From positions 7,189 through 71,188 of the forward strand of contig JAPLDO010000045.1 in the NCBI GenBank assembly GCA_026391715.1: a stretch of DNA of 64,000 bases, written 5' to 3'. Numbering within the stretch: the stretch's first letter is position 1; each line of letters starts with the position of its first letter. A program made the translations under genes and the position numbers. The notes beneath the pieces are model-generated. The model searched no databases. It saw only the letters and a program-made list of their open reading frames with translations, and was not told the DNA's origin. Source of the stretch: Bacteroidota bacterium (GTDB lineage: Bacteria > Bacteroidota > Bacteroidia > Bacteroidales > FEN-979). Of this stretch, positions 3,476-14,189 are shown in pieces.

Positions 3476-4735
3476 CTATTTGCCGGAGAAACGGTCGGCT
3501 ATCCAGCGCATGAAATCGGGCTGGCTTGCGCCAGGAACCCTCAGATGATCAACCCCGGGATAATGCTTGTAGGTAATTTTAATTCCTGAAGCCTGGGCTT
3601 GCTTTACATACGCTTCGGTTGCAGCCGGGAAAATTGTGGGATCGTCATCGCCCTGGTAAACTGCTATCGGAACTTTTGAAGGAATAGTTCCAAGCGCCAT
3701 CTCTTCAACACGTTTCATCCATTTATCATGGTTCTGCGGGTCGGGTCTTGTTGCGGTCCCTTTCCATCCCTGAAGGTAGGCAAGCGCCTGTCCCATCTGT
3801 TTGCTGCTTTGCCGCTTGCTCGATTCCTTAATGAAATCTATTCCAAGGGGAGTAAGCACATCTGAAAGCTGAAGTTCGGGAAAGGTTCCCGCCATGGCGA
3901 ACTGAGCCATAAGGGTTTCAGAGGTGGTCATCGGTGGCAAGGTCTTGCCTGAAGCAAGAACCTGTGCCTCAATTTTACTTTGCTCCAGGGCATTTACGGG
4001 CGCCATCGCAACCACGCCCACAAGAGTGGCAGAATCGGTAAGATATTCGGCAATTTGACCGGCCCATACCGCCGCCTGACCTCCTTGCGACCAGCCTGTG
4101 ATTACAGCCTGTTTGCCTGCTCCCGCTTCGGGGAGCTGACGGACGGCAAGTATCGCGTCAAGAGTGTTGCGCGCTGCCGTCGGACCGATGAGGTACTGGT
4201 GAAATCCAGGGACTCCCTGTCCCTGGTAATCGGTGGCAACAACCACGTAACCGGCTGCAATCATCTCGGTAAGTCCGGGTATTCCCGCATCAATGCGGTC
4301 GGGACTGTCGGGGAAAAAGTAGAAGGAGGCGTCTTTAGCCGGATTATCAACCATCGAGGGAGCGCAGCCTCGGTTTATACCGGTAGTGCCGTGGGCGTAA
4401 CTCACAATGGGTCGTCCTTCTGCCTGCGCTTTTCCAGTCGGCGCCACGACAATGCCGGTCACAGGACAATCCACGTTGTGGATATCGGTGGAGCGGTAAA
4501 GAATTTTCCATGCCTTTGCTCCCGCGACATCAGTAGAAATCTCAGTTGCCCAAATCAGGTCGCCGTGCTTTCCGGCAGACATCGGATCGGGAGGATCATA
4601 AATGCTGCGTCCGGCGGGTAACTGATACGATAATTCCTTTTTGCTGTCATGAACAATATTGCATGCGACAATGAGCGCCAACGCCGGCAGCATGGGCGCC
4701 AGCACAATTTTTCGGAGAAGGTTTTTTGTTTTCAT
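3476..4735 (-). CDS. Secretory lipase (LIP family alpha/beta hydrolase), lipoprotein
   Basis: 419 aa. Signal/lipobox MKTKNLLRKIVLAPMLPALALIVAC and nucleophile elbow ITGWSQGGQAA. Overall resemblance to secreted LIP-type lipases (YRSTD..., TDYQG). Confidence 0.7.
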   Translation of the reverse strand: MKTKNLLRKIVLAPMLPALALIVACNIVHDSKKELSYQLPAGRSIYDPPDPMSAGKHGDLIWATEISTDVAGAKAWKILYRSTDIHNVDCPVTGIVVAPTGKAQAEGRPIVSYAHGTTGINRGCAPSMVDNPAKDASFYFFPDSPDRIDAGIPGLTEMIAAGYVVVATDYQGQGVPGFHQYLIGPTAARNTLDAILAVRQLPEAGAGKQAVITGWSQGGQAAVWAGQIAEYLTDSATLVGVVAMAPVNALEQSKIEAQVLASGKTLPPMTTSETLMAQFAMAGTFPELQLSDVLTPLGIDFIKESSKRQSSKQMGQALAYLQGWKGTATRPDPQNHDKWMKRVEEMALGTIPSKVPIAVYQGDDDPTIFPAATEAYVKQAQASGIKITYKHYPGVDHLRVPGASQPDFMRWIADRFSGK

Positions 4736-4740
4736 GGGAC

Positions 4741-4766
4741 TTAAGGTAAAGGTTAAAGGCTAAAGG
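4741..4766. repeat. Degenerate 7-bp tandem repeat (nTAAAGG x3-4) filling the gap between the small-protein stop codon and the lipase start codon
   Basis: TAAAGG recurs at 4747, 4754 and 4761 (period 7). On the sense (minus) strand the leader is G-poor: CCTTTAGCCTTTAACCTTTACCTTAA. Confidence 0.7.
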
Positions 4767-5067
4767 TTTCAAATTTGTCATTTTTTTGCAGTTCATCAAT
4801 GAATTTCCGGTAAACACTCACTTCGAGTTTTGCTTGTTCGACAAAACGGGTCAACGTTCGCGTAATATCCTCCAGCCCGCCTTCAGTATTGATGGATGAA
4901 GGTTCATCATCCCCGGTGCAAGAGATATTGTTTTTATCCCTGTCGGGCAGTGGGGAGGATTCCCTCAGGTGCCTAATCTGGAAGCTGAAGTCTTTCAAAT
5001 CGCGGTCACAGTGTGCAAAGGCGCTTATAAGCGCCCAGGTTGGCTGTGCTGATTTGTGAATTTGCAT
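4753..5067 (-). CDS. Small conserved hypothetical protein (paralog of 16604-16831)
   Basis: The C-terminal ~60 aa (SSPLPDRDK...DITRTLTRFVEQAKLEVSVYRKFIDELQK) align with the 75-aa ORF at 16604-16831. The start is uncertain: the ORF is open to 5130, and M22 at 5067 is chosen only as the last ATG before the homologous part. Confidence 0.5.
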   Translation of the reverse strand: MQIHKSAQPTWALISAFAHCDRDLKDFSFQIRHLRESSPLPDRDKNNISCTGDDEPSSINTEGGLEDITRTLTRFVEQAKLEVSVYRKFIDELQKNDKFETFSL

Positions 5068-5161
5068 GAAGGGTTGCAAAAAAGTAAAACAGTGCATAAA
5101 AATAATATCAGAAAAATTGATCAGGGTCAAAAAAAAGATGACGATAAAATACGGAGAAGTA

Positions 5162-12186: not shown

Positions 12187-12249
12187 GGCATTAATGATTT
12201 TAATGGTGAATGAGTCATTTCCATAAGCGACCTTGCTGTTATTCCTTAC

Positions 12250-13359
12250 TTAAATTTTTTTCTGATTTGTGATATCAATAATTGTTTGCAGGGAGCCGTA
12301 CATCGGAATCCTTCTGACCTCTTTTGCCGAGAAATCGAGATTTTTCAGATCAATCATCCGGAGTGTCGGATTTTCGTAGGTTTTGAAATAAAACTGCCGG
12401 TTGGTGAGGTCGCGGAATGTAACCCACTGAGTGGATTCGTTTGATACAATATTTCCGCTGGCGTCTTTATCAACGATGATGCCAAAGGGTATTGAAAAGG
12501 TGTTGATAATATGCTGGCAGAGGTTAAGGTTGGAGGCTGCATCGGGCTGGCGGGTAACGAAATTTTCAAACATAGCCAACCGTACAAAACGACTGGGAGG
12601 GGTGTAATCGCCAGGGATTCCAAACATTCCGTCGCCGTGGCCGGTAGGGCTGAAAGTGAATCCACCCACTTTAACAGGAATCGGGTTGACATTCTCCAGC
12701 CCAATATACTGGCGGAGATTAGTATATTGCCAGGGCAGCGATGGCGCGTTGGTCATGACGCCCAGCGGATTGTCGTAAATGTTGCATTGCCCCTTGTCGT
12801 ATTCCACCACAATACAGCCGCCATTGGCGTCGTAAACTATAAAATGAACGGTGACAGGCATTTTCATCTTTGTAGGATCGGAATAGAAAAACACTTTTAC
12901 CTTTGATATGGCTGATTTCACTTCGTCAACAGTGGAAAAATTTGCCAGCGCCCAGTCAGCAAACATTACCTGGGCAAGGGCTTTTCCGCTGTCGGCAGGG
13001 GCAACGGTTTGGTACTGCATGTCGCTTTCGTACCAGAGCACGCTCACCGAGAGTCCTTTTTCGTTCATGCCGTCGCTCACGCCAAAATCCAATCCCATGC
13101 TGGCTACGCCGACATATCCGTTCAGGGTTGTCCATTTCAAACCCAATTTGCTAACGGGTGAGGGACTGAAGAAGGGTTTGTTCCGGGGAACCACGATGAG
13201 GTCGTAGTTCAGGTTGGCGCCGAACTCCATCGAACGGGCAAGGGTGATCGTGCCGTCTTTGGCTTTCATGCGGAAGATGGTGCAGGCCTGCGTTTCCGAC
13301 AGAAATGTTAGACAACAGATTGCCATAAAAAAATAGAGTTTTCTTTTCATTGTTTTCAT
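12250..13359 (-). CDS. Choloylglycine hydrolase family (linear amide C-N hydrolase, Ntn-hydrolase)
   Basis: 369 aa. The signal peptide ends ...SETQA and is followed by CTIFRMKAKDG, which would be the N-terminal nucleophile Cys after cleavage. General similarity to bile-salt hydrolase / penicillin V acylase-like proteins. Confidence 0.75.
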   Translation of the reverse strand: MKTMKRKLYFFMAICCLTFLSETQACTIFRMKAKDGTITLARSMEFGANLNYDLIVVPRNKPFFSPSPVSKLGLKWTTLNGYVGVASMGLDFGVSDGMNEKGLSVSVLWYESDMQYQTVAPADSGKALAQVMFADWALANFSTVDEVKSAISKVKVFFYSDPTKMKMPVTVHFIVYDANGGCIVVEYDKGQCNIYDNPLGVMTNAPSLPWQYTNLRQYIGLENVNPIPVKVGGFTFSPTGHGDGMFGIPGDYTPPSRFVRLAMFENFVTRQPDAASNLNLCQHIINTFSIPFGIIVDKDASGNIVSNESTQWVTFRDLTNRQFYFKTYENPTLRMIDLKNLDFSAKEVRRIPMYGSLQTIIDITNQKKI

Positions 13360-13367
13360 TTTTTGTA

Positions 13368-14189
13368 TTATTTATCTGTTTCATTTTTTGTGGCTTTTTT
13401 TCCCTTTGCAGGAAATTGAATATTCAATCCGGCAAACAACTGGAACTCAGGCTGACCAATTCCATAATGAAGAACGGTGAATTGAGGTTCAATCCCCATA
13501 GAGATGATCGCTTTGCCGGAAACCATTACCTTACCTACGCCGAACCCCAACGGTATGGCGTAATGGCCGTTGGTCAAGTCAAACATCCAAACCGCAGTGC
13601 CTTTCAGCGTAAATCCTCCTCCTATCTGAAAAACGTAAAATGGCTGAAAATTGAGAAGACTGGTTGAGGGACGTTTCTCTGCCGCTTTATTGACACTGTA
13701 AACCGAAGCCTGCCAGGTGATAAGACTGCCCACCATGACGGTTTTGCTCAGTGGCTGCACCAATACGGCTGTTGCCCCCAACTGGTATTTCCCGGCTCCC
13801 AGTATGGAATCAGTAGATGAAGGCAGAACCACGATGGGACCAATCCCAAAATTGGTATAGGATTTGGGATTAAACCACACATAAGTGGCGAAGATGTTGA
13901 TATCGCCCATCCCCGATAATGGTGCGCTTTTCATGGTCGGAACCGTCATTAGCGGCAGGGTTGCCCGCACGATCAGCCGCGGCGTGACAACTACGGGCCG
14001 GATCATCAGCGTGTTGACCGACTGCCCAGGCAGACCAAACAGACTGGGTGCATAGTAGTTCTGAAAGCCTATCGAATTAGCTTTTGCCAGCGGGTTGTTA
14101 GCCATCTGAACCTGTTCCTGCGTTTGGGCAAAAAGGCATACAGGGAAAAACAGGATCAGGAATAAAAATGATACTTGTAGATGTTTCAT
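13368..14189 (-). CDS. Outer-membrane beta-barrel protein, possible hydrophobic-compound channel (MetA/phenol-degradation-like)
   Basis: 273 aa. Signal peptide MKHLQVSFLFLILFFPVCLFAQ, a GMGDINIF motif, alternating beta-strand pattern and aromatic C-terminal strand NIQF. The family assignment is by recall only. Confidence 0.45.
   Translation of the reverse strand: MKHLQVSFLFLILFFPVCLFAQTQEQVQMANNPLAKANSIGFQNYYAPSLFGLPGQSVNTLMIRPVVVTPRLIVRATLPLMTVPTMKSAPLSGMGDINIFATYVWFNPKSYTNFGIGPIVVLPSSTDSILGAGKYQLGATAVLVQPLSKTVMVGSLITWQASVYSVNKAAEKRPSTSLLNFQPFYVFQIGGGFTLKGTAVWMFDLTNGHYAIPLGFGVGKVMVSGKAIISMGIEPQFTVLHYGIGQPEFQLFAGLNIQFPAKGKKATKNETDK

Follow-up and report, generated by a model that had tools for sequence, protein, structure and literature searches.

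A recurrent locus pairing two exported amide hydrolases with predicted surface lipoproteins in uncultured Bacteroidales

Gene content and layout of the locus

The 64,000-nucleotide stretch of DNA analysed here (the window) comes from an uncultured Bacteroidales bacterium from lake water and carries, within 1-19 kb, a locus whose genes all lie on the minus strand. The locus is headed by a TPR/LuxR regulator and encodes three paralogous lipoproteins (P1, P2 and P3), an outer-membrane barrel, two lipases and two exported amide hydrolases (Table 1). One of the hydrolases is a Cys N-terminal nucleophile (Ntn) linear amide hydrolase of the family of bile salt hydrolases (BSH) and penicillin V acylases (PVA), called CBAH below, and the other is a YtcJ-like enzyme, called Amidohydro_3. 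A first-pass annotation had proposed that the region encodes the extracellular breakdown of an amide-containing lipid. We kept its open reading frames (ORFs), and its family assignments, motifs and 8-110 nt spacers held when re-checked by ORF calls and Pfam. It had overlooked two genes, the 75-aa ORF behind the regulator and an AAA_14/DUF4143 ATPase gene.

Between P3 and P2 the spacers measure, in order, 110, 8, 63, 40 and 105 nt. No terminator-like site was found between the operon genes. Scans for sigma-70 and Bacteroidetes -7 boxes did not exceed chance and do not define the operon. A candidate promoter box for P1 (TAnnTTTG, 3325-3332) matches its consensus weakly. An Rfam scan of 1-20 kb returned zero RNA families. 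Pfam matches to TonB-dependent receptors or SusD were absent among the genes of 1-27 kb, which bears out the earlier view that the locus has no SusC partner. No carbohydrate-active enzymes were found in the locus by Pfam, its enzymes belonging to amidase, lipase and amidohydrolase families.

The AAA_14/DUF4143 gene intervenes between P2 and the LIP lipase and sets LIP and P1 apart as a sub-locus of their own; they do lie further along, as had been noted, but are split off from the operon. This part looks like a partial duplication of the operon head, because the 5' end of LIP is 72% identical to that of P2 and a degenerate copy of the small ORF lies ahead of it. The DNA identity is that of a repeat family, D2 (4668-4769 against 8977-9078 at P2); 16503-16604 at P3 was compared as well. 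The degenerate copy lacks both an ATG at the homologous start and upstream CAGTA repeats. Homology between the 5' end and signal peptide of LIP (MKTKNLLRKI...) and those of the P genes suggests that a duplicated head of a P gene became joined to the lipase.

Table 1. Features of the locus in the window and positions of small-ORF homologues in related loci (L001 to L032)
Feature	Position	Strand	Basis or remark
TPR/LuxR regulator	16968-18779	-	Pfam TPR_12 2e-31, GerE 5.6e-5
Two CAGTA-N6-CAGTA direct repeats, putative operator	16877-16892 and 16919-16934	-	Perfect copies, 42 bp apart
75-aa ORF	16604-16831	-	Kept at same position in related loci
P3, predicted surface lipoprotein	14300-16579, ATG at 16570	-	37% identity to P2
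Outer-membrane barrel, 273 aa	13368-14189	-	AlphaFold (AF2) model, Foldseek
CBAH, Cys-Ntn linear amide hydrolase, BSH/PVA family	12250-13359	-	PF02275 1.2e-60
PGAP1-like lipoprotein alpha/beta-hydrolase, GHSMG	10936-12186	-	PF07819 1.4e-9
Amidohydro_3, exported, YtcJ-like	9150-10895	-	PF07969 7.7e-76
P2, predicted surface lipoprotein	6819-9044	-	AF2 model, Foldseek
AAA_14/DUF4143 ATPase gene	5162-6520	-	Pfam; between P2 and LIP lipase
Degenerate second small-ORF copy	4753-4959	-	Ahead of LIP lipase
LIP-family lipase lipoprotein, GWSQG	3476-4735	-	PF03583 3.4e-14
P1, predicted surface lipoprotein	1015-3348, probable ATG at 3243	-	63% identity to P2
DUF5777 protein	19-912	+	Outside the locus
Small-ORF homologue, L001	3006-3233
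Small-ORF homologue, L010	6743-6979
Small-ORF homologue, L030	7001-7255
Small-ORF homologue, L031	4322-4558
Small-ORF homologue, L032	1691-1927

Recurrence of the gene families in related loci

A genome scan with a profile built from 16 P sequences gave 21 loci with P homologues, all in metagenome-assembled genomes (MAGs) of Bacteroidales, Prolixibacteraceae and Lentimicrobiaceae, many of them from stratified lakes. Their neighbours were compared by BLASTP and clustering. P, the barrel, CBAH and the small ORF served as four independent entry points into related loci, and subsets of the gene set were found in L001, L002, L003, L005, L010, L022, L025, L026/27, L028, L030, L031 and L032. Throughout these, the families recur in changing order, with protein identities of 30-95%. 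Such shuffled recurrence, reached from each of the four starting families, argues for a functional link between them. The comparative check that the first-pass annotation had proposed thus favoured its grouping, with the gene set co-conserved in more than ten loci of uncultured Bacteroidales.

The full set is present in the window and L001. Elsewhere the arrangement is P-barrel-P-CBAH (L002), Amidohydro_3-barrel-P-CBAH (L003) or regulator-small ORF-CBAH-Amidohydro_3-P (L010). Three arrangements were reached through the barrel: Amidohydro_3, TPR/GerE regulator, receiver, 445-aa lipoprotein, P homologue (E 1e-141), lipase (45% identity), barrel (74%) and Amidohydro_3 (30%) in L025; regulator, receiver, barrel, lipase (70%), DUF5122 propeller and Amidohydro_3 in L026/27; and barrel, propeller and Amidohydro_3 in L028. 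CBAH led to L022, where a barrel homologue stands directly upstream of a 79%-identical CBAH. The small ORF led to three more, with regulator, small ORF, lipoprotein, P and Amidohydro_3 (90%) in L030, regulator, small ORF and CBAH up to the contig end in L031, and a minimal locus of regulator, small ORF, CBAH and Amidohydro_3 alone in L032.

Among the 21 P loci, CBAH orthologues (76-91% identity) adjoin P in five (L001, L002, L003, L005 and L010), Amidohydro_3 in L001, L003 and L010, the barrel in L001, L002 and L003, the PGAP1-like lipase in L001 only, and LIP in none. Orthologues of Amidohydro_3 at 83-95% identity occur in L001, L003, L010, L030 and L032, and the barrel adjoins hydrolases in L001, L002, L003, L022, L025, L026 and L028. 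Regulator orthologues (74-88% identity) head L001, L010, L030, L031 and L032, in keeping with the earlier placement of the regulator at the head of the locus. The comparison shows a core of regulator, small ORF, CBAH and Amidohydro_3; P is frequent, the barrel and PGAP1-like lipase are optional, and LIP is private to this genome. It does not sustain the central place that had been given to the pairing of ester- and amide-cleaving enzymes, since the PGAP1-like lipase was found in four related loci (L001, L025 and L026/27) and LIP in none. The recurrent pair is CBAH with Amidohydro_3.

One might ask whether these genes share a function at all. They could be neighbours by chance or hitch-hikers in a variable region, as the AAA_14/DUF4143 insertion, a transposase gene at 25151-26923 and the differing gene content of the loci would allow. 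However, five or six families recur in more than ten loci, in varied order and at 30-95% identity, and some of the recurrences were found independently via the barrel and via the small ORF. We regard an absence of common function as extremely unlikely. The other protein of the region that had been described as a beta-barrel is the DUF5777 protein; we rejected it as a member of the locus, as it is encoded on the opposite strand and is not seen in related loci.

Several observations concern individual related loci. The AAA_14/DUF4143 gene also occurs in L001 (4297-5622), L022 (11150-12445) and L031 (987-2339); its placement varies, from the P2/LIP junction in the window to the barrel/CBAH junction in L001, and it behaves like an independently inserting element. 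The 445-aa lipoprotein of L025 (3060-4397) has an Ntn-like motif, 'AACTF...ARNLD', and was dropped as a candidate amidase after an hhalign comparison with the CBAH profile gave a probability of 0.07 and no Pfam or PDB match was found. In L026 (14429-16831) and L028 (13268-16819) genes for an HlyD-like adaptor and a bacteriocin-type Peptidase_C39 ABC exporter come after the barrel and Amidohydro_3 genes of these P-less loci.

Predicted properties of the gene products

CBAH scores 206.2 bits against PF02275 (gathering cut-off 20.4). Its Cys26 directly follows the signal peptide and aligns with the catalytic Cys2 of Clostridium perfringens BSH (2bjf), confirming the earlier statement that the signal peptide ends at the catalytic cysteine. 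C26, R42, E45, N204 and R257 do not vary among 24 orthologues and N99 is conserved, such that the counterparts of Arg18, Asn82, Asn175 and Arg228 of choloylglycine hydrolases are kept. CBAH thus resembles these enzymes in family and in an N-terminal Cys nucleophile exposed by signal-peptide removal. It differs from the gut enzymes in that a Glu (E45, invariant in the 24 orthologues) replaces Asp21 of the Ntn catalytic set, in NCBIfam scores below cut-off and in its lake-water Bacteroidales host. A firm name as bile-salt hydrolase was rejected, given the score below the equivalog cut-off and the lake source.

Members of this family also act on other amides, and CBAH could be an acylase of N-acyl-homoserine lactones (AHLs), penicillin V or lipopeptides, with the other hydrolases finishing the job, in which case the locus would serve quorum quenching or self-protection rather than nutrition. 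Gram-negative choloylglycine-hydrolase-family enzymes with AHL acylase and penicillin V acylase activity are known (bioRxiv 10.1101/788646; PMC8066178), and CBAH is exported and adjoined by a channel for hydrophobic molecules. Yet its closest solved structures are C. perfringens BSH (2e-45) and Bacillus PVA (1e-36), ahead of the Gram-negative PVA/AHL acylases 4wl2 and 4wl3 (~1e-20 to 1e-22) and the Shewanella enzymes (1.5e-5). Furthermore, the regulator has no autoinducer-binding domain by Pfam, and signal or antibiotic inactivation would leave the large surface lipoproteins without a role. We consider it improbable.

Amidohydro_3 (581 aa) matches the full PF07969 profile at 256.9 bits (gathering cut-off 29.7) and has an HxH metal motif within IDAHTHP, as read from its sequence. 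Its only PDB matches, 3igh and 3icj, are both uncharacterised. A 2026 preprint identified a secreted Bilophila PF07969 enzyme, BwBSH1 (101 kDa), as a metal-dependent, taurine-specific bile salt hydrolase; its short paralogues (482-572 aa) are weakly active (PMC13081902). These metalloBSHs are found mainly in Desulfovibrionaceae and are characterised by an additional C-terminal domain and sulfonate-binding Ser194, Gln381, Asn443 and His544 (PMC13081902). Amidohydro_3 is like BwBSH1 in being exported, YtcJ-like and of the same Pfam family, and unlike it in length, its 581 aa being too short to accommodate the additional C-terminal domain.

The PGAP1-like lipase scores 38.5 bits (cut-off 24.3), carries the nucleophile elbow GHSMG behind a beta-rich N-terminal domain of ~140 aa, and matches lactonizing lipase and family I lipases in the PDB. 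LIP scores 53.3 bits (cut-off 23), with the nucleophile elbow GWSQG, and was not found in any related locus.

The barrel was modelled by AF2 with a pLDDT of 92 as 12 strands with an N-terminal plug helix. Foldseek matched it to FapF (5o68, TM-score 0.60-0.62) and to the COG4313 channel Pput2725 (4rl8, TM-score 0.60), with 11-13% identity to the solved structures. The barrel itself has no Pfam match at E<=1, PF13557 included, and no NCBIfam match; weak PF13557 matches occur in 4 of 41 barrel homologues (best 1.7e-5). It shares with COG4313/PF13557 channels and FapF its 12 strands, ~250 residues and N-terminal helix, and departs from COG4313 channels in that its own sequence lacks a Pfam match. 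COG4313 channels are implicated in the uptake of hydrophobic molecules (PMC4493636), whereas FapF exports amyloid subunits (PMC5557850), so both directions are possible for this barrel. The earlier proposal of a channel for a hydrophobic substrate therefore holds at the level of the fold, with export as the alternative.

P appears to be an undescribed lipoprotein family. P2 is 63% identical to P1 and 37% to P3, and none of the three matches Pfam or NCBIfam. At 90% clustering, 5.8 billion proteins yielded 40 relatives of P2, all unnamed and from uncultured Bacteroidota. An exhaustive profile search of 1.84 billion representatives gave 337 at E<=1e-3 and 132 at E<=1e-30; against PDB sequences the family profile found coiled-coil noise alone. 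The N-termini of P1, P2 and P3 read as a lipoprotein signal, then C-K-K-K-D-D and a proline-rich linker (in P3, lipobox MSC followed by KKKDD). Ser26 and Cys27 hardly vary throughout the family, and members of the closer set all have Lys29. The Bacteroidetes surface-export signal is K-(D/E)2 after the lipidated Cys (PMC5080379), from which we conclude that the P proteins are predicted surface-exposed lipoproteins.

In the AF2 model of P2 (pLDDT 80.9, pTM 0.82), residues ~115-375 form a helical bundle and residues 383-741 fold into beta-rich domains. The best Foldseek matches of the model in the PDB are Cry11, Cry4, Cry3, Vip3 and GH115 (E 3e-7 to 2e-5), those to Cry/Vip3 having a probability of 0.75-1.0. 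The Cry/Vip3 alignments span ~720-770 columns locally, with global TM-scores of 0.1-0.2, an rmsd of ~29 A and 8-10% identity. At the level of the models, the likeness is one of architecture, and homology is not proven. P, as modelled, resembles the three-domain Cry toxins and Vip3 of Bacillus thuringiensis in having an alpha-helical bundle followed by beta-rich lectin-like domains; it differs in lacking detectable sequence similarity, in its predicted lipid anchor at the surface of a Gram-negative cell and in sharing an operon with amidases. Lower-ranked matches of the C-terminal part include CBM16, CBM4 and SGBP-B (7kwc, E 1.5e-3), and a viral model library returned phage tail-fibre lectin, CenC and ConA-like binding domains. 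We conclude that the C-terminal half is, as modelled, a lectin-type binding module. No SusD was among the PDB matches, and the fold as a whole appears to differ from those of SusD, SusE and SusF. Of the capture role in the manner of SusD/E/F that had been assigned to P, the surface-export signal and the lectin- or CBM-like C-terminal halves lend support, while the overall fold, closest to Cry/Vip3, does not.

The fold matches raise the alternative of an attack or antagonism gene set, in which P would be a membrane-binding or pore-forming protein on the surface or released, the barrel would export a partner polypeptide as FapF does, and lipases and amidases would damage the membranes of prey such as algae, protists or bacteria. 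Besides the Cry/Vip3 matches of P and the FapF match of the barrel, the several diverging P paralogues per genome and the giant adhesin-like proteins beside distant P homologues (L012 and L021) fit such a set. Against it, the TM-scores and identities to Cry/Vip3 are low, and none of 38 P family members has any Pfam match, Endotoxin_N, Endotoxin_M and Endotoxin_C included. Reading through the bundle revealed no strongly hydrophobic helix, the enzymes lack the tails of the type IX secretion system (T9SS), and a periplasm-sensing regulator better suits nutrient sensing. Overall, an attack function seems unlikely to us. A different use of the same resemblance would have P, tethered to the cell surface and related or analogous to Cry/Vip3, attach to foreign membranes or lipid particles and pass amide-linked lipids on to the TonB-independent COG4313-type channel and the periplasmic amidases. 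This is a doubtful proposal; if true, it would describe a Bacteroidota lipid utilisation system built on an undescribed protein family, with its own regulator and small-protein switch.

Distant P homologues have other neighbours. They adjoin calcineurin-like metallophosphoesterase lipoproteins, not amidases, in L011 (313-1653), L019 (471-1805) and L013 (12699-14384), which suggests that P can partner with differing hydrolase types. Giant proteins of >3000-4000 aa with beta-helix and Laminin_G_3 regions adjoin P homologues in L012 (12165-22190) and L021 (12279-15446) and the barrel-CBAH pair in L022 (1-5644); all three loci come from one Lac Pavin MAG.

The regulator consists, in order, of an N-terminal signal or transmembrane segment, TPR repeats, a transmembrane helix at ~418-440, RKRK and a C-terminal LuxR/GerE helix-turn-helix, the transmembrane helix and RKRK having been read by eye from the sequence. 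Given this order, the TPR domain should face the periplasm, as in SusR-type sensors, and homologues carry a faint precomputed tag, 'TPR_SusR'. The small ORF always directly follows the TPR/LuxR gene, ahead of the hydrolase operon. Its product has an acidic N-terminus, a helical C-terminus (...TRTLTRFAEQAKLEGSVYRKLLDEL...) and no signal peptide, and its homologues measure 75-84 aa. Differences in the DNA alignment are wobble-type, which marks it as a coding sequence. It has no Pfam match, and as a single-sequence query in a metagenome scan it found nothing; the protein may be a co-regulator. Upstream of it, the CAGTA-N6-CAGTA repeats have 11-bp phasing and are kept at the same position in L001 and L010. 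They are rare in the window, with only three perfect matches; ~1.4 are expected at <=1 mismatch. The repeats are a candidate operator for the LuxR-type regulator.

A possible route for amide-linked amphiphiles

Cleavable signal peptides are present in CBAH and Amidohydro_3 and a T9SS C-terminal (Por_Secre_tail) domain in neither, although PorZ is encoded in the window. Neither lipase lipoprotein carries K-(D/E)2, as read from the sequences. With T9SS tails missing from the enzymes despite PorZ, and the surface-export signal missing from the lipases, hydrolysis probably takes place in the periplasm, contrary to the extracellular breakdown of the first-pass annotation, with P alone at the surface.

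An envelope location would also suit enzymes acting on the cell's own lipids. The lipase and amidases might deacylate lipid A, aminolipids, sulfonolipids or lipoproteins, with P as a structural surface protein: all products appear to be located in the envelope by their signal peptides and lipoboxes, and ester plus amide cleavage would match the bonds of acyloxyacyl lipids. However, the gene set is patchy in close relatives and has mobile-looking AAA_14 insertions, which would be unusual for a housekeeping function, and no genes for lipid A or aminolipid biosynthesis lie nearby. Remodelling of the cell's own envelope is, in our judgement, very unlikely.

From the gene families, catalytic motifs, predicted folds, export signals and co-conservation, we infer a localisation of the products, a direction of transport, a role for P, a regulatory scheme and a substrate class. 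The reading we favour, at somewhat less than an even chance, is that of a regulated operon whose products capture an amphiphilic compound bearing an acyl group in amide linkage, carry it through the outer membrane and deacylate it in the periplasm. The surface P lipoproteins would bind the substrate, or a particle or membrane carrying it, via their lectin-like beta domains. The COG4313-like 12-strand barrel would then pass the hydrophobic molecule across the outer membrane independently of TonB. In the periplasm, CBAH and the YtcJ-like metallo-amidohydrolase would cut amide bonds and the PGAP1-like lipase, where present, would take off ester-linked acyl chains. The periplasmic TPR domain of the regulator would sense substrate or product and activate transcription from the CAGTA-N6-CAGTA repeats, with the 75-aa protein as a possible co-regulator.

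By analogy, N-acyl amino-acid or taurine-type amidates (bile-salt-like conjugates, N-acyl amino-acid lipids or taurolipids) are the most likely substrate class, because both amidase families have precedents for bile-salt-type amidates. Ntn members of the BSH/PVA family cleave such amidates (PMC8066178), as does BwBSH1 among the PF07969 enzymes. In loci with a lipase, acyloxyacyl amide lipids such as aminolipids and taurolipids would fit.

Several results weigh against this interpretation. The best fold match of the barrel is an export pore, FapF (PMC5557850). CBAH reaches 187.6 bits where the NCBIfam BSH equivalog NF038245 requires 350, and 168.6 bits where the PVA model NF058572 requires 600. 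Its large subfamily (2252 matches, E<1e-40) is mostly without P, as in L023 and L024, where distant CBAHs stand alone. The characterised metalloBSHs have a C-terminal domain that is absent from Amidohydro_3. The genes adjacent to the locus include none for fatty-acid, steroid or amino-acid catabolism. Fifteen of the 21 P-homologue loci have none of these enzymes or any other shared neighbour, apart from the metallophosphoesterase lipoprotein paired with P in three of the 15. Finally, the minimal loci L032 and L010 do without the barrel and the lipase, so neither is obligatory.

Compared to known systems, the locus resembles Sus-like PULs with a SusR-type regulator in its co-oriented cluster of exported surface lipoproteins, outer-membrane passage protein and periplasmic hydrolases, and in a membrane-bound regulator with periplasmic sensor domain and cytoplasmic helix-turn-helix. 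It differs in having no SusC, SusD or glycoside hydrolases, with a small COG4313-like barrel, amidases and lipases instead. The first-pass description of a non-glycan analogue of a PUL therefore stands as to the logic of regulated, co-conserved capture, passage and hydrolysis without SusC/D, and needs correction as to the core members, the site of hydrolysis and the nature of P.

Bacteroidota are known for their glycan utilisation loci, and dedicated counterparts for lipids or acylated compounds are poorly documented. Here, one predicted operon unites a Cys-Ntn amide hydrolase with a PF07969 metallo-amidohydrolase, an amide-cleaving enzyme of unrelated mechanism. Bile-salt hydrolase activity of PF07969 enzymes was first shown in 2026, and the locus offers a concrete test of a shared substrate class outside the gut. 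The rare family of ~740-aa P lipoproteins gains a testable role and a genomic context. If the substrate were ordinary, for example a single xenobiotic amide, this would be a routine catabolic operon.

The neighbouring genes encode sensor kinases, a corrinoid methyltransferase set, a transposase, and restriction-modification and capsule functions. Behind a PAS hybrid kinase gene, the segment 21667-25111 (+) encodes in succession a B12-binding protein, a URO-D/MtaA-like methyltransferase and a DUF1638-histidine kinase, which is a corrinoid-dependent methyltransferase set fused to signalling. Downstream of the locus lie the Transposase_29 gene with a small helix-turn-helix gene (25151-27387, -) and a type I restriction-modification system of HsdM, HsdS and HsdR (32781-39503, +).

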